Positions 685-20,748 of a stretch of 20,791 nucleotides of DNA are shown one piece after another; the first letter of the stretch is position 1; each line of letters starts with the position of its first letter. The DNA is from Macrostomum lignano. Lineage: Eukaryota. The position numbers and the translations under genes are program-made. Below the pieces are notes generated by a model. It was not told the origin of the DNA and searched no databases. It saw only the letters and a program-made list of their open reading frames with translations. The stretch is from assembly GCA_002269645.1 (NCBI GenBank), contig NIVC01002365.1, forward strand, positions 1-20,791, written 5' to 3'.

Positions 685-1179
685 CTTGAAAATGACACCA
701 ATTGGTTTTTATTTTTGCATAAGAGTAACTTTACTATAATCGTCCAAAATATTGATTTCCATTAATCAAAAATTACCTTTTCTCATTTTGGCAGAAATAA
801 ATTGCCATTAATCCGAATTTCATTAGCCAAAAAAGTTTCCTTCATCAGCCCAAAACCCTTTCTAAATCAGCAAATAATGCTTATCCTTTCAAGCACAAAC
901 TCTTGATGGATATCGTCAATGGCCGGGGCATATTCTGATCCGCAGCAGGAGCTCAATATGCAAATCCCTGACGCCCTTAGACCCTCTCTCTATATTAGCC
1001 TAAATCAAAGGATCAAACCTTTAATGAATGCGCTGCTGGTATTTCCTTTTAGCATAAATCAGCATCACTTCTGTGTACTTTTTCATTATCTGAATTACAT
1101 GAGCTACTTGAGCCGTACTACCTGACTATCTGACAATCGCCTAACAACCTAACACCCCCCCCAACAATTCAGCCATCGT

Positions 1180-2476
1180 CCATGAGCCTTGAGATCTCAG
1201 CATTTCCCCAGTAAGCCTTTAGATCTCAGCAATTCCCCCAGTAAGCCTTGACATCCCAGTAATTCCCCCAGTAAGCCTTGACATCTCAGTAATTCCCCCA
1301 GTAAGCCTTGAGATCTCAGCAATTCCCACCGTAAGCTCTGAGATCTCAAAACTTTTCCCAGTAAGTCTTGAGATCTCAGCATTTCCCCAGTAAGCCTTAA
1401 CATCTCAGCAATTCCCCCAGTAAGCCTTGACATCTCAGCAATTCCCCCAGTAGGCCTTGACATCTCAGTAATTCCCCCAGTTAGCCTTGGCATATCAGCA
1501 ATTCCCCCAGTAAGTCTTGAGATCTCAGCATTTCCCCAGTAAGCCTTGACATCTCAGCAATCCCCCAGTAAGCCTTGACATCCCAGTAATTCCCCCAGTA
1601 AGCCTTGGCATCTCAGTAATTCCCCCAGTAAGCCTTGAGATCTCAGCGATTCCCCCCGTAAGCTCTGAGATTTCAAAACTTTTCCCAGTAAGTCTTGAGA
1701 TCTCAGCATTTCCCCAGTAAGCCTTGACATCTCAGCAATTCCCCCAGTAAGCCTTGACATCTCAGTAATTTCCCCAGTTAGCTTTGGCATATCAGCAATT
1801 CCCCCAGTAAGTCTTGAGATCTCAGCATTTCCCCAGTAAGCCTTAACATCTCAGAAATTTCCCCAGTAAGCCTTGACATCTCAGTAATTTCCCCAGTTAG
1901 CCTTGGCATATCAGCAATTCCCCCAGTAAGCCTTGACATCTCAGTAATTTCCCCAGTTAGCCTTGGCATATCAGCAATTCCCCCAGTAAGCCTTGAGATC
2001 CAAGTAAGCCTTTAGATCTCAGCAATTCCCCCAGTAAGCCTTGACATCTCAGCAATTTCCCCAGTAAGCCTTGACATCTCAGTAATTCCCCCAGTTAGCC
2101 TTGAGATCTCAGCGATTCCCCCCGTAAGCTCTGAGATCTCAAAACTTTTCCCAGTAAGTCTTGAGATCTCAGCATTTCCTCAGTAAGCCTTAACATCTCA
2201 GCAATTCCCCCAGTAAGTCTTGAGATCTCAGCAATTCCCCAGTAAGCCTTGACATCTCAGGAATAACCCCATTAAGCCTCGACATCGCAGCAATTAAACT
2301 CCAGCCTCGACATCTATGCAATTCTCCCAGCGCAGTAATTAGCCTTGACATCCCAACAACCCAACTCCCCTCTCCCAAGAATTCAGCAATCCCCTTATAA
2401 GCCTTGATAACTCAGCAATCCCCTTATAAGCCTTGACAACTCAGCTATTCCCGATGAGCTTAGATATCTTAGCAAG
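1180..2476. repeat. Minisatellite, 29-30 nt unit (CAGCAATTCCCCCAGTAAGCCTTGACATCT), about 40 copies, decaying to ~3120
   Basis: Directly visible tandem units with recurring variant blocks. Confidence 0.95.
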
Positions 2477-3216: not shown

Positions 3217-3872
3217 TGAAATATTTTAAAATATATGTTACTGTTCTTCTTCTGGTCTCTCACTTCTATGGCTCTATGTCTACTTCAAATATCAATGTGA
3301 GAGCCAAATAACTGAGGCGGCGGATTCAACTGACTTTTCCTGATGATGCAAACACTTGATGGTAACTTACAGACCGTTGTATTTGATGGTCACAATCTCG
3401 AGATGTTTTCTCACAAAAATATAATGTCTAAGGTGGAATTCCAAATAAGAAGCTCGTTCGATTTAAGTCACAAGGTGTTTCTAGTTGTTCGGGTGAACCG
3501 AAGGTTCAGTCTATTGTAAAACGTGGATTGGGTGTTGGTTTAGCTTTAGTAAGTCAATTTATCAGTTTTGGTGTTTGGGTTGAGACCCTAACTATGTTAA
3601 TCAAAATTAGTCAAAAGGAGGTAGGCTGGGAGAAGGGCGAAGGAGAGAAAAGGGGAGGAGAGGCGGAGCGAGAAAGGGGGCGAGCTTCTTGCTTGGTTAA
3701 CATGAGCTTTTATAGTACTTTTCAGTCTTGATCGCATTGGATGGTACATAACTGTTTTTCATTGGTTGAGGTTGGGGTCGTGTCCTCAGCTTTTGCTATT
3801 TGGAGCGCATTCATTGGTTAAGATACATTCAATCTGGATGGGAACTTTCTTGAGTCAAAATGTATCACTTCA
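3217..3872 (-). repeat. 3' LTR (656 bp)
   Basis: Direct repeat of 17519-18175 with the same TG...CA boundaries; preceded on the minus strand by a purine-rich tract. Confidence 0.95.
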
Positions 3873-3887
3873 TTCGCTCTATTTTTC
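3873..3887 (-). promoter_or_regulatory. Polypurine tract (plus-strand primer)
   Basis: Minus strand GAAAAATAGAGCGAA (13/15 purines) abuts the TG of the 3' LTR. Confidence 0.7.
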
Positions 3888-4521
3888 GGGGAAGCGAGGC
3901 CCTCCGAGCGCATAAAAACAGAAAAAAGTATAGCAGGGGGTTAAAATTGATAAAATTGCAGAAAAAGATAACGCATTGTAGTGAACGAGAAAAGTTGTCG
4001 CAGAAAAAATAGTGCGCAGTGAATAATATTAGCAAAAATGTTTGAGTAAAAGGGAACCAATTTAAGCAAGGTAACATAGGTTAAAGTACAACATCAGTTT
4101 AAATAGCGAAAGAAGGGATAGCGCAGAGGGCCTTTAGTTAGGCGAAGCTAAACTAGCTAGCAAGGATGGAATAAAACGCAGCGAGGGTAACCAAAAAATC
4201 GATAAAATAGGTGTACAGAGCAAAATGGAGGTTTAGCGACGCAAGCTTAAAGTGAAAACGCGTTGAGTTAAAAGGAGGGTAATAAAAATCATTGTACAGC
4301 GAAAGTGGGGGGGTTAGCGAGGAACCGCGCAGCTACGAGTAATAAATCATGTACAAGGTAGAAGTTAAATTTTTTTTTTAACTGGGGAACGAAAGGGAGA
4401 TAAAAATTCGAGGAAAAAGTGTACAGTCCAAAGGGGTATATAACACAAAGCTTAAAATGGAGCAAGGCGAGTTAAGCGATTTTTTAACTGACGGTTAATA
4501 ATCAGGTAAATTCGATTCATC

Positions 4522-4782
4522 ATGAGCACAAGGAAGAACTTGCGGTTTTTGCTAGGCGACTTAGCAAAGCGGTCCCAAGATGATTGGGACCTTGGCGACA
4601 GGCGGTGGGCGATCACTCTCGTCCTTCTCGCTGTGCTGGGAGTGCTGGTGCTGCTGCTGCTGCTGTGCCAATGTTGCCGTTGCTGTCGTTGTTGTCGGCG
4701 CAACTGCTGCAGGTCGGGCGCGCCTGGAGCGTCGACTGCGGTAGCAGATGTAGAGGCGCCGCCAGCGGAGTCGGCGGTGTAA
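4522..4782 (+). CDS. Antisense small membrane protein (86 aa) with one TM helix and Cys/Arg cluster
   Basis: ATG 4522; hydrophilic 28-aa N-terminus, TM WAITLVLLAVLGVLVLLLLL, then CQCCRCCRCCRRNCCR; TATATAA at 4437-4443 upstream on the same strand. Confidence 0.6.
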   Translation: MSTRKNLRFLLGDLAKRSQDDWDLGDRRWAITLVLLAVLGVLVLLLLLCQCCRCCRCCRRNCCRSGAPGASTAVADVEAPPAESAV

Positions 4783-5102
4783 GAGCCGAGCTGCTTTGCT
4801 GGTTCGTCCGGCCTTCTGAACGCAACAACGGCCCTTTTCAGGGCCACCACCTGATGTGATACCGAAGTTGTCAGATGAGCAGACTGTGCAGTCATGAGAG
4901 AGCAGGCGTTATTGGGCCGTATGCTTTAGTGCTAGTTGGTTGACTTAGATGAAAGCAGCGCCAGGGACAGAGCGATTTGCAGAGACCAGGCATAGCGTAG
5001 GGCGATGGCTGCGTAGATCAAGGTTGTGGCTTGAATTTGGTTGAAGCAGCGCCAGAGACAGCAATTGGCAGTGACCAGGTAGAGAGCAGCAGTCATGTAG
5101 GT

Positions 5103-5156
5103 CAGGGTTGGACAGGGTTGAGCAGGGTTGAGCAGGGTTGAGCAGGGTTGAGCAGG
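5103..5156. repeat. 10-nt tandem repeat CAGGGTTGAG, about 5 copies
   Basis: One variant copy (5103) then four perfect copies (5113-5152). Confidence 0.9.
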
Positions 5157-5340
5157 CTAGTGCGTGAGGACTTTCGAAAAAGCAGTTGACAGAATAACAG
5201 AGAAAAATAGCGTAAGCTTTACACAAGTGAGCGTAAAAGAGCGGAGGAGTAATTAATAGGCAGATAAATGAAAAATATTTTTGAGTATTTTTGAACAATT
5301 TTTGTAGTGTTTCAGCGCTCAATATTGAAGAAAAAGCGGA

Positions 5341-6297
5341 TTAAAATAGTGAGCGATGATGGTGAATCAAGTCATAAAAAAGAGCATATGCCAGTCGAGC
5401 AAAATTAATATTAAGATCAGAAGGAGGAGAATGCTGAATACGCTTGATGGAGAAGGTATGAAGAGCGGCATACTCTGGCAAGGTGTTAGGATAGCCAACA
5501 AGATCATTTCGTATACTGTGAATATCGTATAAATATCGACGAAGCGGAGGACAAGAGAAAGGAAAGATAGTATGGGCAACTACCGAGCGAGAATAAAAAT
5601 CGATAATTATAAAAGCAAAGTTTCTTGAACGCGTTGAGAGAATGAAAACAGCGTGGGTAAAGAAAAAATTGTGCGGATACAAACGATTGAGCGTGCGTAT
5701 CATAGCTTTCTTAGTAGCACGAGGAGAAAATGGAGGAAAAATTTGATAAACATAAGGGGCGAGAGAATCGAAGGAGGTTAAATAATTTTGGAGCGTAGAA
5801 GTTAACTGCTGCGCCGAAAGATTAGCAGCATCATGGCGGAATTGTTGCCATGGGTAGCGCAGAGAGGAAAGCAACAGAGGCCAAGTGTCTTGGTTAAAGC
5901 GCATGCATGGTTGAGGGAGAGTAGAAGTAGAGAGTTGAAAGAAATCGTCGATAGACATATTAGGAGAAAAAAGAAAATGTAGGATTGGTACAAAGATGCG
6001 GCTGAGAACATCGTTCATAGTGGGAGAAAAGTTCTGTATACGTGGTCGTGAGTGAGTACGACGCAGCATACCAAATAGACTAATTCGTAGAACGCGGAGC
6101 ATTTTAGGATAAAAGCAATGGCAGCGGATAACATAAAAACGAGAGAAGAAAGCGGAGGCCATGCGTAGCCGTTGGGGTTCACCAATAGTTTCAGAATAAA
6201 ATATTGCTTCAGTGAACCAAGCAACAACGGTTGCGAGGCAAATAAGATCATGATTTAACTGTGGTCGGATATCCACTGGTTGCGGAAATGGATCCAT
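5341..6297 (-). CDS. Accessory ORF downstream of pol, unknown function (318 aa)
   Basis: Uninterrupted ATG-to-TAA ORF (MDPFPQPVDIRP...HHHRSLF), non-repetitive globular-looking composition, same strand as pol; no family recognised with confidence. Confidence 0.65.
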   Translation of the reverse strand: MDPFPQPVDIRPQLNHDLICLATVVAWFTEAIFYSETIGEPQRLRMASAFFSRFYVIRCHCFYPKMLRVLRISLFGMLRRTHSRPRIQNFSPTMNDVLSRIFVPILHFLFSPNMSIDDFFQLSTSTLPQPCMRFNQDTWPLLLSSLRYPWQQFRHDAANLSAQQLTSTLQNYLTSFDSLAPYVYQIFPPFSPRATKKAMIRTLNRLYPHNFFFTHAVFILSTRSRNFAFIIIDFYSRSVVAHTIFPFSCPPLRRYLYDIHSIRNDLVGYPNTLPEYAALHTFSIKRIQHSPPSDLNINFARLAYALFYDLIHHHRSLF

Positions 6298-6310
6298 AAG
6301 AGAAAGGAAA

Positions 6311-6442
6311 AAAGGAGAAAAGCAATAGATACACAAAATATTGTTTTAGCGTGCGAGCTCTGCAATGTAAAGAGGGAAAGGAGAAAAGCAATAGATACAC
6401 AAAATATTGTTTTAGCTTTTGCTCTGATGTAAAGAGGGAAAA
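6311..6442. repeat. About 66-nt tandem duplication between pol and the accessory ORF
   Basis: AAAGGAGAAAAGCAATAGATACACAAAATATTGTTTTAGC at 6311 and 6377; ATGTAAAGAGGGAAA also repeated. Confidence 0.85.
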
Positions 6443-6644
6443 GAGAGAAAGTTTTGTAGCTTTGTTGATAAAACGGAATGACAAAATGTTCGTGACTATA
6501 GTCACGGAAAGTGTCGCAATGCAGAGAAGAGCAAAAGCTAGAAAAGAAGGAAAGAAAAAAAGAAGAGAAAGAAAGGAAGAGAAAGCAATATTGTCAGTTA
6601 AGGAAAAGAAAGGAGAAAAGAAGTTTAGAAGGTTTTTTGATCAT

Positions 6645-9600
6645 TCACGACTTCTTGTTCTTTGATCTTAGGTTGTAGCCATGCGTCTGTGGCTGAACTG
6701 GTGGCTCATCAGTAGACGTGGTTTGCAGCGCGATGGACTTGCTCAATGGCGGCCGATGGTTGTGGTGGACCTGAATGTCATCAGTTGTGAACTCAGGTAG
6801 GTGACTAGGTCCAGCGCTGAGTCCATCTCCAGGCCATGGTTTCAGCTTGGAGGCATGCACCACGATTGGTCGTTCGCTTGGTCGGTTGACGTCAGAAATC
6901 AGTGCGTTCTGATCGGAGAGCCATGCTAATAGACGCATTGGGCCACGATAAGGATTGGAGAATTTTGTCTCCTTTGTTGCTGAGACATCCAAGTAGCATC
7001 GTGCACCTGGGCGTATGTAGCGGCGGTTGATCTTCTTGTCAGAGTTTTCAGCGCGCTGTTCAGCTGAGTTGTGCAGAAGTTCCTTGGCGACTTCTCTGGC
7101 AAGCAAAATAGCTGAACAGGTCAAATTGACTGGTTTAATAACGTCCATGTATGCAGTTGTCTGGTGTTCCATGATCCGTGCGTTGGGTGGCAGGAAGTCT
7201 CGAGCGAAGAACAAGTAGAATGGTGATTCATTCATCGTTGAGTGTGCGGCGGTATTGATTGCTAGTGTCACCGCAGGTAGGAAGTCAATCCAGAGATCTG
7301 GTTTGTCATGGACAAAGGCCGTAAGAGTTTGCTTCAGTGTCTTGTGTGCGCGTTCGACGAAGTTGCTGGATGGTTGGTACACCGAGGTGTAGATTAGATG
7401 GATTCCAAGGGCACCCATAAACTCTCGAAATTCTTGCGAGATGAATTGGGGTCCGTTATCTGAGATGATGTGTGCTGGTAGTCCTGCGAAGGCGAACACA
7501 CGGTTGAAGAGACTGTTGCAGATGGTTGCAGAAGTTGTCTCAGTTAGCGGGATTGTGAACAGGAATTTGCTAACGCCGCATTGGGCCGTGAGTATGTACT
7601 TGTAGACGTCGCGGCCGTGTGAAGCTGGTGGCAGTGGACCTACAAGGTCGATAGCCAAATGAGAGAAAACCTCGTTGAATTTGACGGCTTTGTGCAGCGG
7701 TCGCAGTCGAGGTGCTGTTTTCGCTTTGTGGCAGATTTCGCAGTTGTTAACGAAATTGAAGACGTCTTGCCGTAGTGTAGGCCAGTAGTAGAAATGACTG
7801 ATTTTGTCTGCTGTCTTTTGGTGACCTAGATGACCACCAAGGGCTGTCGAGTGGTTACTTGTCAAAAGAGCTTCACGGTAGCGTGTTGGTATCACGAGGC
7901 GGCTTCGTCCTTCGTCATCTTCAAAGTATAGAGTGTTTCCGTCCAGGAAATAACGTGCCAGGTGTCGGCGAACATATTGTTGGTCTTTCTTGGACAGCTC
8001 GTGAGTGGGTGATTTTTCCGATAGAAGTGCTTTGATTGTTGACAGTAATGGGTCTTGATCAATGGCATCCTGCAGTCCGTTGAATGTTGACAGCGATTGT
8101 ATCTGACAGACTTTGGGGATGCGCGAAAGGCAGTCCGCTACTACATTTGATTTGCCTTTCACATAGTTGAGAGTGAAGTTGTAATCTTGTAGCGCTAGAA
8201 TCCACTTCTGAAGTCGTTTTGAAATTGGCTGCTTGTCACTGAATAGACTCTTGAGTGGCTGGTGATCAGTGAAGACGTGGAACTGTTGGTAAGAAGCGTA
8301 GAGGAACACGTGTAGCTTCTTTATTGCCCAATAGATGGCGTATGCTTCGCGTTCAATCGGTGGATAGCGTTGTTCGGTTGGACTTAACGTCTTAGAATGT
8401 AGGCAACCGGGCGTTGGTGGTTGCTGTCGTCTAGCTGTGAGAGTACTGCTCCAATGGCGGTATCCGAGGCATCAGTGTGCAGGAAGTACGGTTTTCGCGG
8501 ATTTGGATGAACCAGTAGTATATCCGTAGAGAGAAGTTGTTTCAGCTTTTCAAAGGCTGTTTGCGCAGCGTTCGTCCAGACGAATTTGTTGGGTTTCGAA
8601 GATAATACTCAGAAGTGGCTGTACTACTCGTGAGTAGCCAGCAATGTGCGTTCGGTAGAAATTTGCAAGTCCAAGGAAAGATTGTAGTTGTTTAACCGTT
8701 TGAGGCACAGGAAAGGTCTTGATTTTCTCGATGAGGCTGGGGCTGGTCTAATGCCTTGAGCAGAAACAACAAATCCAAGATATTGTACCTCTGTTTTAGC
8801 AAAGATGCATTTTCGTAGTGAAATTCGCAATCCATGATGTCGTAACTTTTGGAAGAAGCGTTCGATTTCTTTGAGCATGCCGGTGAAGTCTTCGGCGATG
8901 AGCATGACGTCATCCAAGTAGGCAATCTGATTTGGAGAGTCAGCTGTTAACAATGCTACAAGACGGCACATTAAGCTAGGACTGGACTTGAGTCCTTGAG
9001 GTAGTCGATTGAATTCCCAAAGTAGGCCGTTGGGTGCAATGAACGCAGTGTATTTTGTGCTTTCTGGATCGATCCGAACTTGGTAGAAAGCATCTGCTAG
9101 GTCACAGAGTGTGTACAGTTTAGCGTTCTTCAATCGATGTAGCAAATCCGGAATCTTAGGAGGTCGGATGCTAGGAGCACGAATTAGCTTGTTCAGTTTT
9201 CGGTAATCCGTCACGAGTCTTAGTTGTCGGCGACCTTGAGCGTCGAGCGTCTTCTTTTCCACGAGAAGACATGGACTTGAGTATTCAGATTCACTCGGAC
9301 TGATGATTCCTTTTTGACGGAAGTTTTCGATGAGCTCATCAAACCGTTCTTGTAGTCCATGAGCGATTGGATAGGGTCTGGACGTGACTGGCTCAGAGTG
9401 TGGGTGTAGATGCAGGTGAGCCGTGTATTGGGTAGAGCAACCCATGTCGGTTGGCAGTAGTGCCAAGACGTCACGGTACTTGTTCATTAGAGTAACTAAT
9501 TGTTCACTCTGCTCGGTTGAGAGGTGCTGGTTGGCTTGTTTGAGTTGAGTACGGATCATGTCAGTCGTAGGTGCTTCTTGTTGCAGCGTGCGGAGACTGT

Positions 9601-10587
9601 TGATTTGAGCTGCTGGCGCACGATGTTGTAGTCAGACATGTTAGCCAGATTTCCAATGACTTGTTGAGGATGCAAGGTTTGCGTTGTCAGCGACGGGTTG
9701 GCAATTTCCACAGTGATAGTTTGTCCGTCCGGGTTGACAGAAACAAGGCAAGTTGGTATCATCAACTGGTGTTTCTGGATCGTGTGGTCCTTAGGGACGA
9801 ACAGGACAGGAATCGTTGGCTCATGTCGAGAAGAGAGTTTCAGCGTGACTTGGTGCGTTGTCTGTGGTGGTAACTCTAGCTTGTTTTGCATCACCGCAGA
9901 GGTTTCTTGCAACTGTTGGATGGAGTTGAGCATCGCAAATTGCTCATTGCCAAGCTTAGCTGTCGCTTTCGAGTAGTCGAATTGTAGTGGTATTCCCAGT
10001 GACTTAAAGGTTTCTACTCCTAAGAGCAAATCATAGTCAGCGTCGGGGGTGTCGAGCACAAAGGCCGATATCTTGTGGTTGCGTCCATCGATTTCGAGAT
10101 CAAAAGTAGCCTTTTTGTTGAGGTTTAGTTGTTGTCCTCCTGCACAAATGGCGTTCATGTTGGTGTCTTGTAATGGTACTCGAAGCTTTTTGGCGAATGC
10201 CGGTGAGATGCAGGAGATCGAGGCGCCGCTGTCAATGAGGGCGGTGCATCTGTGTCGAGTATGCGGTGCGTTGCGGCACCACAGGTTGATCATTGTTGCT
10301 GTTGTTAGGTGCTTCAAAACAAAGGCGTATGAGTAGTTTGCTGGCCATTTTGGAACTTTCGGTTCTGGTGGTGGTCTCCGTGGTGGCGGAAGGGTGGCAC
10401 GAAGTTCAATCGTTTCGATGGGTGCCGAAGGTGTTGGCGCTCGTCTGGTGGTATCAGTTGCTGTTGTTGGGAGTAGTCGTTTCGTGATTCCACTTGAGTT
10501 GGAGTTCGTTGTTGCCGCAGCACTTGTATAGTGTGCGTTCTGCCGTAACGGATGGTGCTGGCGACGCAGAGTCGGCCAAGATTGCAC
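6645..10587 (-). CDS. pol: Pol: aspartic protease, RT, RNase H, integrase; frame breaks near 9620, 8741, 8610, 8397
   Basis: ALIDSGAS (DSG 10233-10225) and DLLLG; DYRKLN, DLADAFYQ, LPQGLKSSP, YLDD (8920-8909), YLGF; LHTDASD, EREAYAI, TDHQPL; H-H-C-C zinc finger, IDLVGPL, SDNGPQF, VERAHKT; ends GYNLRSKNKKS. Confidence 0.96.
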
Positions 10588-13378
10588 ACGAAGATAATAA
10601 CGGCAATGTAGACGATTACAGCTGCTGTTAAGACGAACTTTTCTTGATAGTTTGCGACTAGTCGATCCCAGTTAAATATCGACGAAGACCATAGATTGAA
10701 GAGAGCTAGTTTTGAGTCCAGGAATGCACTGTCAGCATGGGCTGTCCTGTGTCGTGTTCGATTCGGAAGTTTGAAAACTGTAATCAGAAAATCGCGAGTT
10801 TGCATGAACTGGTGCATTAGGTCGGTCACCGTTATTGGGCTACGAAGTGAAGTATAATTGATATCTCCCATAGGTTTGAAGATGCTCTCGGAGACGGAAG
10901 TTTGCAAATCGGACAATCGATAGTTTTCATCGGATCTGACATTAGCGGTTGTAGGTTCAAACCTCGAAAAATTTAGTGTGGTCTTGAATAGCATCGATTG
11001 TTTAGGCAGGTAGTAGTGTGGGAAGGCGTCGCATGAGATTAGAGCTGGAGTAGCTGTGGAGACAATACGAGTCGTTGTATCCAAAAATCCAAGAACGGTA
11101 TAATTTTGTAGGCGGAATTCCAGTGGGGGCGCGTGAAGCATTGGTTCGTCTTGTACTTTGGTTGGACAAAGCGAAACTGATGTAGGGGTTTGCACTGGTA
11201 GACGAAGAGGTATCCAGCAATGGATCTAGCTCGCAAGAAAGGATCATTTAATAAGAGTCGAGCAGCGAGCGTTGGTTGTGTGTAGTATAACTGTCGATTG
11301 TACTTGAGATTAGTTGCGTACATCAGGCATTGAGTAGTTGCCAGCTGCCTCTGTACTTGGAGAAGATCTTTTCGAGCTTTACTAGCAGCTCCTTGTAGTT
11401 GTCCAGCAAGAAGTTCAGCGGATGCGAACGTTGATGAAAGTTGCGCAGTAGAGTTGCCTGAAGGGGCTGCGATGGTTTTGTCATCTGTGCTTCGCTTGTT
11501 GCGTGGTAGTAGTAGGAGATCCGGTTGACCACCTTGTGGTTCGTGATATGGAACTGCTAGATTCGTATGAATAGAAGCCAGTTGTGGATCTGTTGTTGTC
11601 GCTGGTGAGTTTGTCGTGAAGGTTGAGGTTGCAGACTTTGCTGGTGCACTGGTTGTGCTGCTAGAGGTTGAGGTTGTTGGCGGTAAAGTGGTGGTGGTAC
11701 GAGGTTGTGTCGTCACTTTTGTAGTCATCGTAGTTGAATCTGCTGTCGTTGTTGCTGCTGAGGTTGTAGCAGTGGTGGTTGTTGAAGTTGTCGGTGTTAC
11801 GGTTGTGGTAGGTATTGTTGTCGTTGTAGTCGGTGGCATTGTCGTCGTAGCTGGTGGTGTTGTCATTGTAGTCGGTGGTGTTGTCGTTGTAGTCGGTGGT
11901 GTTGTCGTTGTAGTCGGTGGTGTTGTCGTTGTAGTCGGTGGTGTTGTCGTTGTAGTCGGTGGTGTTGTCGTTGTAGTCGGTGGTGTTGTCGTTGTCAAAA
12001 TTGTAGTTGTTGGTGTTGATTTTGTAGTAGTTAGTATCGTAGTTGTTGGCGCCATTGTTGTAGAAGTGCTTGACGTCGGTGGATGATCAGGTCGCTCTTG
12101 TCGTAAAGGTTGCGGCGGTAGGAATTGTCGTGACTGAGTTGTCGTAGTGAAAGGATGTTGAGTCGTCGATTGCTGAACGGGTAATATTGTTGGTGGCGTT
12201 GGTAGTATCGCTGGTGGTGAACGACGTTTTTGTCTCGAAGAAGTGGTTTCTTCGCTAGTTTGAGGTTTTGGAGTAGCTTCTTCTAATGGGCTTCGTAAGG
12301 TGGCGAGAAATTCTGCTTCTTTGTTGTCGAGGATGTCTACGTATAGACCTTGCGTTGAAAGGTACAACGTCTTACGGACGCCAGTGCAGGTGAGAGTGTG
12401 AGTCGACGGCACTGGGTTGAAGGTTAGTCCCAATGTTTGATCATTAGTTAAGAACAAGCCTGAGTTTAAGTTGCCTTCAAGAGTACGAAATGGTTTTAAA
12501 GGACAATCAGCGAGTGGTGGAGGTGTCCAAATAAGATTTAGATGTCTTGGTCCTTTCACGTCAATTTGGTAGATTGCTTCAGTTTCCAAAGGATCCCAGG
12601 GGGATGTTAGTATTGGCAAAGGTAGGTTGAAAGCTCGCATTTCTTGTGCAGTTGTTTTAATTGTACAAAATTTGTCGGTGAGTTTGCAGTTGTCCATTGG
12701 GAAGGACAAAGATTCCATTTTTTGATCTGCTGTTGAGTAGGCTGGGATTCCGGTGATCACTGTTGTTACTATTTGTTCTGAATGGGAACCGGGAGTGCAA
12801 CGCACAGCATTTTGCGTGTTGAATGTCGATTGCAGGCGTTGGATAGACTGAGTTGACGCAGTCTTTAACACTAATGATCCATCAGGAGATAGCTTTGTTC
12901 GTGCCCAGTTTTCACAATCAGCTTGAGTGACTGGTTGCGGTTCCAACTCTACCAGGGCGGATGTCCAGGTTCTTATCACCGCCTTATCACATCTAATAGT
13001 GATTTTCTCGCGGAAACAGACAGTCATAACCAGGGAACTGGTTTCCACGTTTGTTGTGTAAAGTTCCAGTTTCAACGGGAGTGTCGGCGTTGTTTGGTGT
13101 TTGAGCTGTTCACAACGGATCTCATGTGGTATCGTGAAAATTCGTGGGATCTGGTTGTACGGACAGACCATTGGTGTGTCAATGAAGCCCTCGTGAGATT
13201 GTCTCTCAATCGATGGTGGAGTTGACGTCGTTACCGGCGTAGCGTTGGCTAGTGCGAAGAGTGAAGTTGCTAGGCACAGGAGAAAAAGTGTCAGTAGTGA
13301 TCGGCGAATTCCGACGGAAGCTTTCACGGTTTTCTCGCGGTTGTTGTTGCTGGTCGGTGGAGTGTAGGTGTCAGTCAT
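10314..13378 (-). CDS. env: Env-like class III (herpesvirus gB / chuvirus G-like) fusion glycoprotein; one -1 break near 11127
   Basis: Signal-like LLTLFLLCLATSLFALANA (13297-13241); Cys-spaced ectodomain; furin motifs RQKRR and RNKR; ATTQC...QPTLAARLLLNDPFLRARSIAGYLFVYQC...CFTRP(P)LEFR...GFLD...ISC resembles gB domains III-IV; sequons NST, NYT, NFS, NYT, NRT; TM FVLTAAVIVYIAVIIFVCNL (10637-10578). Confidence 0.85.
11868..11993 (-). repeat. Coding 21-nt tandem repeat (TTTPPTT) x6 in the env mucin-like domain
   Basis: GTAGTCGGTGGTGTTGTCGTT six perfect copies, with degenerate copies towards 11815. Confidence 0.95.
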
Positions 13379-15151
13379 TCTTTCAACCGTACAAAGGCGG
13401 ATAGAGTTGATAGTCGCAGAAGCAGTAGTCGGTTTTTTGAGTAAGGATTTCAGCTGCTTAGCGTCTCCAGAGTAGCGAATTTCGTTTCCAAAAGTCGGTG
13501 GGCGTTCATCAACTGTAGCAATGTGCATCAGTTGGGCAGACTCGGGAGCGTCGTGAGTCGTCCATCCAATCTGCGGCTGTTGATTCCATCCTAGGTGGGA
13601 CGTTTCAGGGTCCTGAGCAGTGATGGCGCGTATCGGTGGATATTGTTGTTGCGCAAATCTCGGAGGTTGTCGTTGATTGTTGGCGCCGTTGTATCGAGGC
13701 GGATAGCGTTGCTGAGGCCGGTTTCCATAGTCTTGACGGGGTGGAAATCGTGATTGTTGTGTCGCCGGTGGACCGTAGCCTTGTGTACGTTGGGCTCGTA
13801 GTCGGCACTGGTTAATAGAGTGTCCTGGTTTTCGGCAATAGTTACAGGTCAATCGTGGCGGTTCCTGCTGGTAACGATCCCGCGGGGCATCAGAGCCGTA
13901 TTGAGCTGTGTTCCTTCGATCGCTTGAGTTAGGTCGGAAGGGACGAGGTTGTTGGTCATTCCTTCGACGACAGTCGGCGGCATAGTGTCCAGGTCGACCG
14001 CAATGATAACAAGTGGGCTTCTGTTGCATATTAGCGATAGGTGGCTTGGTTTGTGTTTGCAGGGAGGCAACCACCTGCTGATTGGCTTCCTTCGTCGTTT
14101 TTTCTAAGGTAGTTAGACGCTCTGTGAGAGCTTTCAAGTCAGTGCCATCAGAGTCCATGGTGGAGTCGCGGATTTGTTCGGCGCGGATGGCCTTGTTGAT
14201 TAGCGTACTTTCCGTGGTGATATTTTGCTTCAAGAGTTCTCGTTTGATGTAGGGCAGTGCATTGTTGATAGTCGTAGCCATCAGGGTAGCAAGGAAGTCT
14301 CGGTTGCGCTGGTCGATGACAGCTTGGTTCGCGGGTGGTGTTTCCGGACCGGCACCTTCCGGAAATTCTTCCGGTATTTCCGGCATAGCTGACCTGAGCT
14401 TTCGACGAATGTCGGTGAAATAAGACAGGAACGGTTCGCCGTACTGTTGTTTCCGGGTTGTTGCATTATGCAGCGTTAGAGCCGAGCCAATGGTTACTTC
14501 CCGAAGGCGTTGAGATAGTGCCTTAATGGTGGCTGGATAAGAGGCTTGGACTACGGCAGAGAGGCGACTGTATTCGAGTTTAAGAAGGTCATTCAGTAGT
14601 CGCGGGAAGAGCCGAATCTTTGCGTTCTCCGATAGTCCAAAGGAGCGTGTGATCAAGTCGAACTCTTCAGTGAAGGAGCGGAAGTCATGCATTTGGTCGA
14701 TTCCTTTCAGGGATTGACGAATTTCAGCAAGAGCAGTAGCTGAGACGGGATGGTTTGATTGCAATTGCAGACTGCGGTTCATAACATCAGTAAGTTCACG
14801 GACAGCATTTGTCGCTGCAGCATCAACATGGGGAGCGCCGTCCTGATCAGCCATATCTAGAGTAGGTTCTTCAGCAATATCGTTTGGGGCCGGTTGAACT
14901 GTTTCGTCCGCGTCTGTTAGGATGGAACTGGGTGCTGGTGAGTGTGCACGGTTGTATTCAAAATGATCCGCGAGAGGGTTATTAAACTCAACGTTATCTG
15001 GTATAAACAGGTTAGGTACTGGTGAACTATTTCGTGGGAGCTGTTCACCTATTTGGCGGTCAGAAGTTTCTAAATTTTGTTCAGGGGGTCTGTTAATATT
15101 TGAGCTTTGAAAAACTGGTCCGGAACGTAAATCTCGGACAGGTGTGGTCAT
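13379..15151 (-). CDS. gag: Gag (capsid plus nucleocapsid); no stop, continues in frame into env
   Basis: First ATG 15151 (MTTPVRDLRSG); retrotransposon capsid-like segment (FTEEFDLI...RKQQYGEPFLSYFTDIRRKL); zinc knuckles CYHCGRPGHYAADC (14011-13970) and CNYCRKPGHSINQC (13846-13805); Q/P/R-rich tail. Confidence 0.92.
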
Positions 15152-15341
15152 TAACAAGAATTCAATCAATAATTTCAAGGCAACAATAGCACAAAAATGT
15201 AACTAATAGCAAAGTAGAGTGTCAAATTCAAAGTGAGCAAACGGCAGTGGCTTTCAGGGTTGCGGTTGGCGGACTGGCTGGGGAAGGGAGAGAAAGAGAG
15301 ACTGTGTGATTTTTTAACTGTTCTTTTGGAAACTGTGAATC

Positions 15342-15516
15342 TTTTGATCGGTTCTGAAACTTTGAATTTTGAAATTTTGAATTGAACTGCCGTTTTGATC
15401 GGTTCTGAAACTTTGAATTTTGAAATTTTGAATTGAACTGCCGTTTTGATCGGTTCTGAAACTTTGAATTTTGAAATTTTGAATTGAACTGCCGTTTTGA
15501 TCGGTTCTGAAACTTT
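15342..15516. repeat. 51-nt tandem repeat, 3 full copies plus a partial, in the 5' leader
   Basis: TTTTGATCGGTTCTGAAAC restarts at 15342, 15393, 15444, 15495. Confidence 0.95.
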
Positions 15517-16027
15517 TATTGAAACTGAATTTGATAAAGGAGCTCCTGAATGTTGGACTAGACGGACATCAGTGGTGGCCAATAAAATCGAATTTGTATC
15601 ATTGAAGTCGGCAGTATTCTTTTTCTTGAAGTCGGCAGTTTTCTTCTGAGAATTTGTTCTGGCTTTTTGAATTTCGAATTTGAATTTTGAACTATCTGAC
15701 GAGTTTCAGCTAGGGGGTTGATTTCATAATTTTAAGCAAACGTAGAGTAATGTTTTTGTAGTTTTATAAATTTGCTATTTTTTAATTTTTTTGAAAATTT
15801 TATAATTTTTTATTGATCGGACTGATCATTTTGTAACTTTAACATGATAAGAGCAGTACGGATTATACGAGATGAACTATAAGCAATGGTATTGTTTTTT
15901 TTGTGTTTTCAAATTTTATTATTTTTGCGATCTAATGGTTATTTTGAAGTAGTATTTTTGCAATGCAATTATAGACGTAACGAGGACAATGATAGAAAGA
16001 AAACCATGAACAAGAGACAAGGAAAGA

Positions 16028-17022
16028 TTATGGTACATGTATGGAGCTCGGGGAGTCGGTGCTGAGGAACACTAAACATGTATTGCCTTTGGCAATAGGG
16101 AGATGAGAGAAAAGTAGAAGTTGTTTGGATCTTAATCCATCATACAAAAACGGGAAATGGCTAGGAAAGGAAAAAAATTCCTGGGGAAATTGTTTATCAG
16201 AGATCGTGAAAAGGTCGCTGAACCGGAGAGTGAGTGGCAGGATGGAGCTGGCCTGGACAGTTTGATTAAGGAAAAGATTTTCTCGTGGGAAATGAAGTTG
16301 ATTGATGGCTTTAATTAAGAAAGGAGGTCTCTCTAGGAGATTAAGTATGCGCGCGAAGTCTGACTTGGGCAGCTTGTTTAAGATAAGGATTTGTTGGAGG
16401 GCACTGAAGCTGAATAAACACACAAGAAAATTCCCTAGCATCCTAATCTCTACATCAAAATGATCTATAAAGGGCAACCGCCAGAATCAGCAATCCGAAA
16501 AAACAAACTTGGGTCGATGAGGATTTGATGGATGGGGCTCGTGGGCTTTGCAAACAGTGAGTTTGGATTGTTTAATCAAGAAAAAGTGATGGAAGGCTAG
16601 GCAAGCGGTCTACGAAAATAAGCAAGGTTTTCCAGATGAAGCACGCAGGCTTGGCAAACAGCGAATCTTGGGCTTTAATCAAGGAAGATAATGAATGGTT
16701 AGACAAGCAACCTGTCTGATAAGCGAAAAAGTTTTCTGACAGCAAGAAAGTGGTGGCTCCAGATTTTGATTGATGTTTACTGTAGTGACTTGGTTGGAAT
16801 AGCTCGTCAGGTTTTTTTGCGTTTTCGTTCTTTCTTTCGGGCGCTTAACGGCGCAGAGAATCTAAGATAAGCCAGTTTTCTAGATGTGGCCACACACTGG
16901 GAAAAACCGAGGAGGAAATCGAATGGCTCAGTCGCTTTGGAGAGTTTCAAATATATATGAAGAAATCCAGAGCAGACTTTGCTATTCTGTGGAAAAGCAG
17001 TGAAGGAAGAGGCGTCCAACAT
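16028..17022 (-). other. Possible frameshift-broken ORF(s) in the long leader upstream of gag
   Basis: 71-aa ATG ORF (17022-16807) ending RKKERKRKKT, followed by open segments in other frames with recurring SLFAKP, LIKA and QILI peptides, then ORF 16477-16028; no homology recognised. Confidence 0.3.
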
Positions 17023-17503
17023 TAAATAAACTTGAACAATTGATGATGCCGCGGTCTTTTGAAAAATCGAAGCTTTGAAGCTTTAACAATTGAGGATCCG
17101 AATAACTGAATTGAATTTCTGCATTGAAGCTCTGAGGCTTGAGAATAAGAACTCGATATCAGACGTTCGACGACGTTTCTTGAATTGAAGTGAAATTGAA
17201 ATTGTAATTGTTCCGGAACGATAATTTATTGACTTTCATGGATCCTTTGAATTTGAAATAACTTGAATCAGGTCTCAGTGCACTGGACAAAACTTAGAAC
17301 CGATTTGAATTCTGAATTTGAATTTGAGAGCTCGTGATTTACGATTCATTCTTCGAATATGTATTATTGACAGTCTCGAATGCTCAAAGGGGAGGGGGGG
17401 GGGAAGCCAGTCCAACCGTTCACACCCATCAGCCACGCCTATAGCTGTCTACCCCATGCAGGGCATAGCGGCTATTGTGGTGAAAAGCATCGGAGGAAAA
17501 GTA

Positions 17504-17517
17504 CGGTCAGGGAACCA
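17504..17517 (-). promoter_or_regulatory. Primer-binding site complementary to tRNA-Glu 3' end
   Basis: Minus strand TGGTTCCCTGACCG starts 1 nt after the 5' LTR CA; it is the 14-nt complement of ...CGGTCAGGGAACCA, the 3' end of animal tRNA-Glu(CTC) as I recall it. Confidence 0.88.
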
Positions 17518-17518
17518 G

Positions 17519-18175
17519 TGAAATATTTTAAAATATATGTGCGTTATTGTTCTTCTTCTGGTCTCTCACTTCTATGGCTCTTGTTCTACTTCAAATATCA
17601 ATGTGAGAGCCGAATAACTGAGGCGGCGGATTCAACTGACTTTTCCTGATGATGCAAACACTTGATGTTAACTTACAGACCGTTGTATTTGATGGTCACG
17701 ATCTCGAGATGTTTTCTCACAAAATATAATGTCTAAGGTGGAATTCCAAATAAGAAGCTCGTTCGATTTAAGTCACAAGGTGTTTCTAATTGTTCGGGTG
17801 AACCGAAGGTTCAGTCTATTGTAGAACGTGGATTGGGTGTTGGTTTAGCTTTAGTGAGTCAATTTATCAGTTTTAGCGTTTGGGTTGAGACCCTAACTGT
17901 GTTAATCAAAATTAGTCAAAAGGAGGTCGGCTGGGAGAAGGGCGAAGGAGAGAAAAGGCGAGGAGAGGCGGAGCGAGAAAGGGGGGGCTTCTTGCTTGGT
18001 TAACATGAGCTTTTATAGTACTTTTCAGTCTTGATCGCATTGGATGGTACATAACTGTTTTTCATTGGTTGAGATTGGGGTCGTGTCCTCGGCTTTTGTT
18101 ATTTGGAGCGCATTCATTGGTTAAAATACATTGAATCTGGATGGGAACTTTCTTGAGTCAAAATGTATCACTTCA
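17519..18175 (-). repeat. 5' LTR (657 bp)
   Basis: Minus strand starts TGAAGTG and ends TATTTCA (TGAA...TTCA inverted termini); hand alignment to 3217-3872 gives about 20 substitutions and 3 small indels. Confidence 0.95.
18011..18120 (-). promoter_or_regulatory. LTR U3 promoter: three CCAAT boxes and TATAAAA
   Basis: Minus-strand CCAAT at 18120-18116, 18068-18064, 18043-18039, then TATAAAA at 18017-18011; all conserved in the other LTR (TATA 3714-3708). Confidence 0.7.
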
Positions 18176-18419: not shown

Positions 18420-20748
18420 TCAAAGCTTTGGCTGGAACAAAAACTCAATTTTTTTTCTGGCAGCCAGGCCGGCACTCAGGGCGGTCACTGCGCAGCCCAG
18501 CGATGCATTCGAATGCAGCAGGTAAATCTGAAAAATCAATAGTGCGCTTTCAAATCGAATGCTTGGTGAATTCTGTTAAACTTTTAAGAGAGGGGTTGGC
18601 AAACTTCGGCCCGCGAAGCCTCTCTTATCTGAGCCTCGGGTCCTGCGAAAATTCACGATAGAAATCCGGTCCGATCAAGGCCTGCGTCTGCTTTTTAGCT
18701 CTCTTCTCTCTAATAATATCTTCTATTTTCTTTCCTATTCTCTTCTCGTCTCTCCTCTCTCGTCTCTCCTCTCTCTTCTATCCTCTCTCCTCCCTTGTCT
18801 CTCGCCTCTCCTCTCTCCTCTCTCCTCTCTTGTCTCTTCTCTCTCCTCTCTCGTCTCTCCTCTCTCCTCTCTCGTCTCTTCTCTCTTCTCTCTCCTCTCT
18901 CCTCTCTCCTCTCTTCTCTCTCCTCTCTCGTCTCTTCTATCTCCTCTTTCATCTCTCTTCTCTCCTCTCTCCTCTCGTCTCCCGCCTCTCCTCTCTGCTA
19001 TTCTCCCTCGTCTCTTCTCTCTCCTATCTCTTCTCTCCTCTCTCGTCTCTTCTCTCTCCTCTTTCATCTCTCTTCTCTCCTCTCTCCTCTATCGTCTTTC
19101 CTCTCATCTCTTCTATCTCCTCTCTTCTCTCCACTCTCCTCTCTCGTCTCTCCTCTCCCTCTCTCCTCTCTCCTCTCTCGTCTCTTGTTTTTCTTCTCTT
19201 CTTTATTCCCTCGCATCTACTTTCTCCTATCTTTCTTCTCTCCTCTCTCCATAGATTCTCTATGTGGCCCTTGAAGTTAATAAAGTTTGCCTTTATATAA
19301 GAACGAAGCGCGGATGGCAATTCTCACCTCAGTTCCGTCTGGCTTAAGTTCGTTCAGCTCGGATTGCAGCAAATCTTGCAGCTGCAACAGAGAGGCAAAC
19401 AAGTTGCCACCGTAAGAAATCGCCATTGATTTGGGAAAAGTGACACCGTAGGAGCACTGGGCAATGGCTATGATGCTGTTTGCAATAGCTCTCGCATTGC
19501 GGCCCACAATGGCCTTACAGATTACAGCGATGCGGGACACATCGGCACGAGACAGGTTCTGGAGATCAAGGAGTCGACCAAGGTTCGCTGCCAGCTCCTC
19601 GTTAGGCGGACTCTTTTCGACATGCAGGGCGTCGAACAAAGTGAATACTTCGAAGCCTTTTGCTTGGTTTAGCGTCCAGTTCTCTCCAGCTGGTGACCAA
19701 GCATCGATCGCATTCGTTTTGATCAGAATGCGAATGCACCTTTCCAACAGGTGGGCAAACACGCGCCAGAGATAATGCACTCCAGTCGGAGCACCGCTTT
19801 CAGCTCATTCATTACACTTTTATCGAAAACATTCGCCAGATCATTGAGTTCGTTATTCTGCCGATGAAGAAGCCAGCCTCCGAGTTGACAACAACGCAGT
19901 GACCGTTACCCGTTGGTCTTCGGAGCAGCAGACGGTTGTCCAAGCTACACACTTCGAGGAAGTCTGGTCAGTTTCCAGGTAGGCCAGGTTGGCGCCAATC
20001 CGGTGGCACAGTACACCGATGGAACAGTCCGCACTGTTTCCGCCAAGAAATGCCTGATAAACGCCTGACAGCAGGGTGCCCACTGCGTATTATCACCGTA
20101 ACGATTTCTACGGTCAGGTCGATTCTCTTGAACGCTTCCTACAAATAATTTTTGGGAGATTTTACTGCACCATCTCTTGACTTCTGCAATTAGTTTTCAG
20201 GAAAATTCAGGCGAACGGAGATTTTTATGTGAACTTAAGCCTCGAGAAGGGAAGAGGAAAGCATAGGAAATGAAACTCGATCACAATTTCTAGAATGAAA
20301 GCATGCACTTGCATGAAACTTCAGTACGAAGTCGCTCCCACAAAGCCGGGCATTTGATAGCCCTTGGAAGCGGTCTGCACCGTTGCGCTGGCCGGCTGCC
20401 GCTGGGCCTCCACCCAGACGTCAAAGCCGGCTGCAACGCCCATGTAGACGGTGGCGGAGCCGCTCGTGCAGCCACCCGGTTGTCAACGAGCATCTGCTTG
20501 ATGCACAGAGCGACAAAGTCGGAGAACTTGCTCATCTGAGCTCGACGAAGCGACGGAGTCAGGACGAAGGCGCGCTCGTCAACCAGATTTAGCGGACTTC
20601 CGCGTTGAGCGACGCAGCACAATGACAGTTTAATGTAGTGATCGGAGCAGCCAAAGTCCATGGCTAAGCACGTGCCCGCGCCGCCGTGGTAAGTCGGCAA
20701 TGTCGGTACGTAGCACCAGCGGACTGGCAGCCTCTGCTGTTTCGCAGC
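18420..20748 (-). CDS. Divergent hexokinase-like gene, last three exons (20748-~20309, 20138-19328, 18527-18420); 5' end outside window; several frame breaks, possibly a pseudogene
   Basis: Ordered matches to hexokinase motifs: CLAMDFG (~FIALDLGG), FSDFVALCI (~LFDHVAECL), ASKGYQMPGFVGA (~WTKGF..GVEGA), VGTLL..CSIGV...GANLAYLE (~VGTMM..CEVGL..GTNACYME), VVNSEAGFF (~CINTEWGAF), LECIISG (~FEKMISG), VICKAIVGRNARAIA (~VCGVVSRRAAQL), SLGCAV (~SGKGAAL); acceptors TTGCAG, TTGTAG, TTTCAG and donor GTGAGA at 19327. Confidence 0.78.
18700..19255. repeat. Degenerate TC/GA microsatellite (polypyrimidine-polypurine tract) in the last hexokinase-like intron
   Basis: About 550 nt almost only C/T on the plus strand, built of TCTCCTC / TCTCGTC units. 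Confidence 0.95.

Follow-up and report, generated by a model that had tools for sequence, protein, structure and literature searches.

How does a retroelement maintain an excess of Gag and package its Pol when a passage through the membrane parts the one from the other? The question is raised by a 20,791-nt stretch of Macrostomum lignano DNA (hereafter the window), which carries on its minus strand, between 3217 and 18175, an env-bearing LTR element of the Ty3/gypsy type, that is, an errantivirus in the broad sense (Table 1). The explanation that accounts best for all the observations, and that we consider likely, is that gag, a gB-type env and pol form one frame of ~2830 codons encoding a polyprotein that would be threaded through the ER.

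Table 1. Features of the element in the window, in order of transcription; dN/dS values are from one pair of copies
Feature	Position	Strand	Basis or remark
5' LTR, TG...CA, 657 nt	17519..18175	-	96.1% identity to 3' LTR
Primer-binding site, complementary to 3' end of host tRNA-Glu	17504..17517	-	sequence match
2.4-kb leader with 20 upstream ATGs	15152..17503	-	sequence scan
Gag, with capsid region and a pair of CCHC zinc knuckles (14011, 13846)	13800..15151	-	zf-CCHC E=1e-7; capsid dN/dS 0.05
Gag-Env linker, open in frame; includes Met 13378 and two candidate sites for the element protease	13301..13799	-	dN/dS 0.38
Internal signal-peptide-like segment: basic residues, hydrophobic core, end ANA	13241..13300	-	hydropathy (Kyte-Doolittle 2.1 over 13297-13241)
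N-terminal part of Env ectodomain, resembling gB domain I/II in position	12236..13240	-	dN/dS 0.09
Thr/Pro/Ser-rich mucin-like insert between furin-like RQKR and RNKR, with 21-nt tandem repeat	11492..12235	-
C-terminal part of Env ectodomain, matching the long helix and crown of class III fusogens	10635..11491	-	dN/dS 0.10; break near 11130 in window copy
Predicted single transmembrane (TM) anchor	10578..10634	-	hydropathy (Kyte-Doolittle 2.7)
Cytosolic tail, TM to protease in frame	10291..10577	-	dN/dS 0.12; break near 10450 in window copy
Aspartic protease (DSG)	9960..10290	-	domain match; dN/dS 0.02
Reverse transcriptase (YLDD) and RNase H	8100..9340	-	domain matches
Integrase (H2C2 finger, core and a tail that we take to be GPY-like) and polyprotein stop codon	6645..7895	-	domain match
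Accessory ORF, 318 aa, no known family	5341..6297	-	copies compared
Purine-rich tract, just before 3' LTR	3873..3887	-
3' LTR	3217..3872	-	LTR comparison

The structural hallmarks of the Metaviridae are all found: LTRs bounded by TG...CA, a primer-binding site, a purine tract and, in other copies, 4-bp target-site duplications, which are missing from the chimeric window copy. The pol domains follow the order PR-RT-RNase H-IN, the RT has YLDD, a form of the YxDD motif of Ty3/gypsy elements, and the RT-RNase H region of a sister family (RT 80% identical) finds its best match in Ty3 (E=3e-64), ahead of caulimovirus, foamy virus and MLV entries. Membership of the Belpaoviridae is ruled out by YLDD, rather than YVDN, and by the location of env ahead of pol. 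The primer-site pattern has 32 matches in the genome, with tRNA-Glu genes at all three loci scanned. Two LTR pairs among the copies have 0 mismatches, and transposition has been recent.

The earlier note on this DNA read the order of coding regions in the window correctly as Gag, Env, TM, PR, RT, RNase H and IN. Its statement that gag runs into Env without a stop holds from the ATG at 15151 through the capsid, the knuckles, the signal-like segment and most of the ectodomain; it fails at the TM, which, as assembled, sits outside the Gag frame. Nor does the protease begin directly after the TM, as had been supposed, for ~116 residues lie between the end of the TM and the catalytic DSG. The assembled coding region is divided among five frames (15202 to 11042, 11225 to 10317, 10671 to 9559, 9631 to 8627 and 8471 to 6648), with breaks near 11130, 10450, 9620, 8740, 8600 and 8400 that are probably for the most part long-read assembly indels. 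A few lesions appear genuine, namely two stops, an 8-nt indel and, in copy L057, a 4.4-kb internal deletion whose ends are not of the splice type.

The window copy is itself a join of two insertions, the halves of which match different loci at >99.8%. This, together with LTRs 4% apart and the missing target duplication, could suggest that a one-off rearrangement or misassembly generated the gag-env-pol order. The switch between the two parents lies at ~9000-9500, however, inside RT and downstream of both env junctions, and the order recurs among the near copies as well as across three deeply separated RT lineages; this explanation is refuted and retains next to no probability. The stretch is found in 20 of the 24 sequencing runs listed, and none of the listed runs that contain it is an RNA run.

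Near copies were compared as a set of 22 (the window and L035-L055), a number that overstates independent insertions, some copies being allelic or nearly identical; L056-L060, two of them partial or internally deleted and three without a long match, lie outside these counts. The set contains 363 frame-breaking events, made up of 361 indels, 252 of which are single-base deletions, and 2 stops, where neutral evolution, judged by the 306 synonymous variants, would have left ~50 stops. Such breaks do not characterize the family as a whole, since sister copies break at scattered, differing sites: 125 of 184 sites are broken in one copy only, and the most widely shared in 7 of 22. The interval from Gag to the signal segment (13800-13210) is unbroken in 16 of 22 copies and that from tail to protease (10570-10230) in 12 of 21; neither contains an in-phase stop in any near copy, and the stop between gag and env, which the earlier note had named as evidence against its reading, is thus absent from all 22. 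Every one of the 22 near copies is broken somewhere along its length, and natural frames of 2086, 1753 and 1513 aa span TM-PR-RT.

More distant relatives extend the picture. Of the 127 matches that the Env protein has genome-wide, 17 lie in stop-free frames of 2370-2866 aa, and the arrangement seen in the window is therefore not due to chance. Ten of the 20 loci fetched from other families carry the full series (Gag, signal peptide, Env, one TM, PR, RT, RNase H and IN) within a single stop-free frame, 2370-2866 aa long, at RT identities to the window of 33-80%; both the gag-env fusion and its order are conserved there. A public protein of 2852 aa (P0006) has the identical gene order. No close relative lacking env, which would have told against the earlier note's reading, was encountered: Env is upstream in 32 of 33 clade RT loci. 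The 33rd locus stops at a contig edge. By pairwise RT identity the order spans three deep lineages in this genome, and the signal-like segment, a furin-like site and a single TM recur at corresponding positions across families, with 97-135 aa from TM to DSG; L106, in which the signal is in another frame, was left out of the signal comparison. Outside the genome, relatives are thinly sampled, a full HMMER search having returned 7 proteins only; those that are named are flatworm proteins. Homologue searches by shared words gave nothing useful (5 low-complexity matches in one, none in two others). The gag-env-pol order is real beyond any reasonable doubt, and we are highly confident that it forms a single frame.

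A programmed frameshift or read-through dividing Gag-Env from Pol might still be proposed, since TM and protease are in different frames in the window. The 12 of 21 copies that are unbroken there, the differing break sites of the rest, and the absence, at both junctions of 10 ORFs, of a 2A motif or any conserved slippery heptamer all argue against it; the stop-free frames of other families largely refute it, and we consider it most improbable. Selection, too, follows one frame: it is purifying throughout, and constraint on Env is as strong as that on integrase (Pol dN/dS 0.02-0.11, from the one copy pair). For an infectious endogenous retrovirus, whose enveloped particles would enter other cells, this selection on Env and the lack of an env-less close relative are at most indirect signs. 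The capsid has no Pfam match and is labelled from position and conservation.

What kind of protein is Env? Profile comparison and a predicted fold make it nearly certain that it is a class III fusogen of the herpes gB type. Its profile matches EBV gB (E=1.7e-11), PF24664 is detected in 8 of 11 Envs, and the alignment has 12 invariant cysteines. In Foldseek searches every top match was a herpes gB (E=7e-20), the query being a monomer model of the Env of another family (L099) with pLDDT 64, pTM 0.43 and whole-chain TM-scores of ~0.25. A distant homologue clusters with herpes gB and Monjiviricetes glycoproteins in the Atlas, where recognition was below threshold. The likeness to these glycoproteins therefore lies in sequence profile and predicted fold; Env shares only ~10-14% identity with them, is shorter, sits inside a retroelement polyprotein and, in the window's clade, has a mucin-like insert at the cleavage loop. 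That insert occurs in 3 of 11 aligned Envs and varies in length between copies. Two published features of gB-type errantiviruses, an env between gag and pol and a gB-type ectodomain flanked by a signal peptide or TM and by a TM, are seen here; signal and TM calls are from hydropathy alone.

The earlier note pictured a cytosolic Gag, a luminal Env and a cytosolic Pol on the Env tail. This fits the single frame, the signal-like segment and the presence of exactly one TM, and from these features it is quite probable that Gag and Pol lie in the cytosol, each tethered to the membrane, with a luminal Env between them. The strongest predicted splice-acceptor-like site of the element is at 15278, 126 nt ahead of the gag ATG, and all 23 copies that extend over the site retain its CAG. 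The mRNA would be trimmed at this acceptor and translated, Gag being made in the cytosol. The internal signal segment would then start ER translocation, and signal peptidase would release the Env N terminus while Gag stayed anchored in the membrane. Flavivirus and alphavirus polyproteins are analogous, with a capsid that is left on a membrane anchor, an internal signal, a luminal glycoprotein and a stop-transfer segment, followed in flaviviruses by cytosolic enzymes; the analogy is one of topology only, with no homology expected. The single TM would halt transfer, leaving PR-RT-RH-IN in the cytosol on the Env tail. A furin-like protease would cleave the ectodomain, and in the window's clade could excise the mucin-like insert, and the element protease would detach Gag from the membrane anchor and Pol from the Env tail.

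It would follow from such a mechanism that Gag and Pol meet on one membrane, not as a soluble Gag-Pol, in a nominal 1:1:1 ratio with Env. Ty3/gypsy capsids normally need an excess of Gag, far from 1:1:1, and the disparity points to a missing regulatory step. Pol may, as the earlier note suggested, enter particles via the Env tail, an idea to which we give somewhat less than even chances. More tentative still is the combined reading, in which a soluble Gag-Pol is never formed, Gag and Pol are each tethered to the membrane from the outset on opposite flanks of a class III fusogen, Env trimers gather Pol and thereby activate the protease, and Pol is packaged via the Env tail. If it were true, transposition would be coupled to budding into the secretory pathway, and a tractable flatworm would harbor agents resembling complex retroviruses, equipped in the window's clade with a mucin shield that can be excised and with an orphan gene of accessory type. 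We found no description of this packaging logic for reverse-transcribing viruses in the searchable literature.

Two other readings have to be weighed. Targeting may be leaky, the signal being used in part of the chains while the rest remain cytosolic as Gag-(unfolded Env)-Pol; Pol would then reach particles by way of Gag, as it does elsewhere among Ty3/gypsy elements. Some 500-670 residues of the chain precede the signal segment, on which constraint is weak (3 nonsynonymous versus 1 synonymous change in 20 codons), and candidate protease sites are found on both sides of Env. The four-residue pattern of the RNase H/IN junctions, which speaks for the favored mechanism as well, occurs, over 9 ORFs, 4 times in the linkers from nucleocapsid to signal (1.1 expected) and 3 times in the first 45 tail residues (0.56 expected), compared with 3 in the ectodomains (3.8 expected); these are small numbers, the pattern is absent from 4 of the 9 ORFs, and the families are related. 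However, ~600-870 unfolded residues would presumably have to survive in the cytosol, and the hydrophobic core is kept in every lineage examined, so that leaky targeting appears rather improbable.

Alternatively, the single frame may be real and the proteins may come mainly from sub-genomic RNAs made by cis-splicing or spliced-leader trans-splicing, with Env-Pol, Gag-only or Pol-only RNAs setting the Gag excess. Spliced-leader trans-splicing is described for ~30% of Macrostomum lignano genes, with a leader that ends in ATG (PMC8629364, PMC9851317), and is in that respect favorable. An Env-Pol RNA would start at Met 13378 or at the leader's own AUG. The AG directly before this Met is kept in 23 of 23 copies, and synonymous variation is low just upstream: the 50 codons of 13576-13429 in the linker have 1 synonymous-variable codon against 8.3 expected, a borderline value among ~110 overlapping windows that could reflect an RNA signal. 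An in-phase acceptor-like site at 10311 ranks 8 of 434. Against this, the site before Met 13378 ranks 43 of 434, the low-variation stretch folds no better than shuffles (z -1.1 and -1.7), the linker has no unusual RNA fold, and in other families no strong in-phase acceptor recurs before the signal segment (6 ORFs) or the protease (9 ORFs). The Met, residue 592, does lie 27 residues before the hydrophobic core, as the earlier note said. As a separate start for Env it is weak, because it is not conserved: 3 of 14 ORFs with a true signal (L095-L097, one lineage) have no Met in the stretch that precedes it, and elsewhere its distance is 12-56 residues. It keeps some plausibility because the spliced leader ends in ATG (PMC8629364). 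On balance, we regard sub-genomic RNAs as an unlikely main source.

How much of this is new? Novelty of the gene order, which the earlier note implied, does not hold: GAG-ENV-POL elements with a gB-type Env are described from Nematoda, Bryozoa and Platyhelminthes (Chary & Hayashi, eLife 2026, PMC13524379). The window family resembles these errantiviruses in its Ty3/gypsy pol, its gB-type env between gag and pol and its multiple copies, the nematode and bryozoan elements being matched by description. Nine platyhelminth elements are catalogued in PMC13524379, one from Macrostomum lignano with LTRs of ~863 nt and another primer site; because the window family has LTRs of 657 nt and a tRNA-Glu site, it appears to be uncatalogued. 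The main text of that paper has 0 matches for 'fused', 'single ORF', 'polyprotein' or 'frameshift', though its figures or supplements may show a single frame, and neither a mucin-like insert nor accessory ORFs are mentioned in its searched sections. In the text available of PMC12801592 and PMC5408684, the anatomy of a single-frame gag-env-pol is not described. Atlas virus and the belpaoviruses (PMC9094657) likewise have Env within one polyprotein of ~2800 residues, with no stop or intron; they differ from the window element in that Atlas virus belongs to the Belpaoviridae, has YVDN and the order Gag-Pol-Env, and bears a C-terminal class II phlebovirus-like Env, so that no membrane passage separates its Gag from its Pol.

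A literature search revealed no paper on Gag excess and Pol packaging where a membrane passage parts Gag from Pol. The endogenous retroviruses of nematodes are said to have a continuous gag-env-pro-pol ORF with extra ORFs, which would make their anatomy that of the window element. Those of Sacco et al. 2022, which have nematode hosts, unlike the window's flatworm, are cited in PMC13524379 for a reversed order of ENV and POL; common descent with them is not established, because GAG-ENV-POL elements are not monophyletic according to the same text. What is added beyond the known order comes from comparing, within one genome, numerous copies and three deep RT lineages, which together point to one obligatory frame and a fixed membrane topology; young copies in what is likely a laboratory flatworm make native RNA work and proteomics feasible for the question of Gag excess and Pol packaging.

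Several smaller ORFs lie outside the long frame. The leader ORF at 16028-16486 was rejected as a gene, since it survives whole only in the window and the 2 copies closest to it and is interrupted or incomplete in the remaining 12 of 14 loci, as was that at 4945-5340, which is not consistently open in 10 copies; the ORF at 4452-4925, inconsistently open in 10 copies, is doubtful. The accessory ORF is conserved, being full-length or nearly so and stop-free in 14 of 31 matches (pN/pS 0.25-0.43), and has no Pfam match, a predicted fold too poor to use (pLDDT 35), and no likeness to the 3' ORF of another family. A mucin-like insert between furin-like sites, together with accessory ORFs, suggests that these elements are closer to complex viruses than to simple retrotransposons. 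Related families bear tandem RING-finger accessory genes.

The gag-env-pol arrangement of this element is real, well supported and already known. The primer site of the window element matches the host tRNA-Glu, a purine tract is also found, and the coding region is spread over five frames. Pfam places a zinc knuckle in the first of these, followed by an aspartic protease, reverse transcriptase (RT), RNase H, integrase zinc finger and integrase core, the pol domains thus being in Ty3/gypsy order. The earlier note had described a gag-env-pol order with Env inside one polyprotein; the order stands, as does the stop-free passage of Gag into Env, whereas the transmembrane segment and protease of this copy, as assembled, lie in other frames.

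Features of the window element, its flanks and related loci (window positions unless a locus is named)
Feature	Position	Strand	Remarks
LTR element	3217-18175	minus	14,959 nt
LTRs	17519-18175 and 3217-3872	minus	96.1% identical
Leader tandem repeat	15342-15516		51-nt repeat
Near-invariant Gag-Env linker stretch	13429-13576	minus	50 codons
Signal-like segment	13297-13241	minus	between knuckles and protease
Cys-rich ectodomain			between signal-like and transmembrane segments; Thr/Pro-rich insert flanked by two furin-like sites
Mucin-like insert	11492-12235	minus	also in L091, L093
Transmembrane segment	10634-10578	minus	single
Orphan ORF	5341-6297	minus	318 aa; after pol; purifying selection
Minisatellite array	1055-2450		29-30-nt units; host flank
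CT-rich microsatellite	18660-19230		host flank
Two tandem Cys-rich ORFs	L100:8004-8669, 8808-9371		after pol
Two tandem Cys-rich ORFs	L102:8033-8680, 8610-9353		after pol
Three tandem 2-kb units	G000:C1753:202865-211759		L157-L159

A search of the genome (G000, 764 Mb) with the gag-env junction gave 28 matches. Twenty-six regions were fetched, and the counts that follow rest on 22 near copies (the window and L035-L055), L056-L060 being partial or unrelated and standing outside them. All 22 are broken, at positions that differ from copy to copy, and among the natural frames that span the transmembrane segment, protease and RT are ones of 2086, 1753 and 1513 aa. The 363 frame-breaking events comprise 361 indels, mostly of a single base, and two stops. 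They fall at 184 sites, 125 of which are present in one copy; the commonest, a six-base homopolymer, is broken in 7 of the 22, and a 21-nt repeat, where the alignment is noisy, accounts for 50 events. The same copies hold 306 synonymous, 121 nonsynonymous and 2 nonsense variants. Without selection some 900 nonsynonymous and 50 nonsense variants would be expected, and so substitutions have been strongly filtered. Decay is a poor explanation for so many indels, because both LTR pairs open to comparison are free of mismatches and the copies are therefore too young. We infer instead that the break pattern is the profile of an unpolished long-read assembly. The near copies include some allelic ones, and a few of the lesions look real.

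The window element is itself a join of two insertions: its 5' flank to ~9500 matches contig C1695, and the stretch from ~9000 through the 3' flank matches C3266. The join accounts for both the divergence of its LTRs and the absence of a target duplication. In a tandem pair on C172 both LTR types and their 4-nt flanks recur in reciprocal arrangement, which suggests a reciprocal mis-join or ectopic exchange. The loci compared on the three contigs are L142-L144, L165 and L168. The join lies within RT, and both env junctions are unaffected.

The arrangement extends well beyond these copies. For the N-terminal part of Env the genome search gave 127 matches, of which 17 lie within stop-free frames of 2370-2866 aa. 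Twenty loci of other families were fetched. In 10 of them capsid, knuckle, Env, transmembrane segment, protease, RT, RNase H and integrase share one frame; the remaining ten are broken or cut short, with the order of the parts present unchanged. These loci form three RT groups of 33-44% mutual identity and have a hydrophobic segment before Env, a furin-like site splitting the ectodomain and a single transmembrane segment 97-135 residues upstream of the protease motif. Where RT is at least 75% identical to that of the clade, an Env match lies upstream of it in 32 of 33 loci, and the 33rd stops at a contig edge. A public 2852-aa protein (P0006), whose cluster is labelled Macrostomum lignano, has the same anatomy, and this flatworm is accordingly taken as the probable host. 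Another public entry, the Gag-Env protein P0007, is annotated to a bacterial metagenome bin (Kangiellaceae) and probably derives from an animal retroelement contig that was wrongly binned.

A profile of the C-terminal ectodomain matches the class III fusion glycoprotein gB of EBV (E=1.7e-11) ahead of other herpes gBs, and PF24664 matches 8 of 11 ectodomains. The structure predicted for a related Env without the insert has a pLDDT of 64, and the top matches to this model were only gB (E=7e-20, whole-chain TM ~0.25). Twelve cysteines are invariant in the aligned Envs. In a single comparison, with the 93% subfamily, dN/dS was 0.09-0.10 for the ectodomain, 0.11 for integrase and 0.12 for the tail; the Gag-Env linker (0.38) and the mucin-like insert (0.32) gave higher values. 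This insert, limited to one clade, is found in 3 of the 11 aligned Envs, with a basic site on either side every time; the span across it varies from ~610 to 930 nt among copies, the two largest values coming from copies with a duplicated stretch. One stretch of the linker holds one synonymous and no nonsynonymous variant in the 22 copies.

The window family is a new addition to the GAG-ENV-POL elements, with its mucin-like insert and, after pol, an accessory ORF of no known family. A continuous gag-env-pro-pol ORF was reportedly described by Sacco et al. in 2022. According to the text of Chary & Hayashi (PMC13524379), the errantiviruses of Nematoda, Bryozoa and Platyhelminthes, in several lineages, have gB-type Env only and the order GAG-ENV-POL, the nematode cases being credited to Sacco et al. 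2022. Nine flatworm elements are catalogued there, one from M. lignano, which differs from the window element in LTR length and primer site. Figures aside, the words 'fused', 'polyprotein' and 'frameshift' do not occur in its main text, nor does the preprint mention splicing. In belpaoviruses a single ORF is known to encode a polyprotein that ends with Env (PMC9094657).

What remains of interest in such an element is its packaging logic. Under standard membrane biogenesis, one signal segment and one transmembrane segment would place Gag in the cytosol, Env in the lumen and Pol in the cytosol. Signal peptidase cleavage would leave Gag membrane-anchored, Env would be cut by a furin-like enzyme, and the element's protease would free Gag and Pol. 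A protease-site pattern derived from the RNase H/integrase junctions occurs four times in the linker (1.1 expected), three times in the early tail (0.56) and three times in the ectodomain (3.8), a modest enrichment in the first two that is suggestive only. The leader holds 20 upstream ATGs, and the top acceptor-like site among 434 falls 126 nt ahead of gag and is preserved in 23 of 23 copies; together these point to a probable trimming of the translated RNA at this site. Neither a conserved frameshift nor a 2A motif nor an internal acceptor was found, and the internal Met before the signal segment is not conserved. Gag excess is the usual condition. A 1:1:1 ratio conflicts with it and counts against a complete account of the mechanism, as do the unusually invariant linker stretch and the spliced leader of M. 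lignano, which can supply an AUG (PMC8629364, PMC9851317). Entry of Pol into particles via the Env tail is conceivable, though we would sooner bet slightly against it.

A pyrimidine-rich tract precedes the orphan ORF. In a third lineage (L096, L097) the equivalent place is taken by an unrelated ORF of 260 aa, and related gag-env-pol families carry the tandem Cys-rich ORFs (also in L101, L103 and L109). One of four such ORFs tested gave a RING-finger match above the cut-off (zf-C3HC4_3, E=4e-7), another a weaker one, and one RING-finger-like ORF starts with Met-Gly; these are possibly captured ubiquitin ligases. Besides the short tandem repeat in the window copy, the leader is ~2 kb longer in many other copies, one of which has a 167-nt repeat. 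Each of the tandem units on C1753 is ~82% like the element's LTR and leader.
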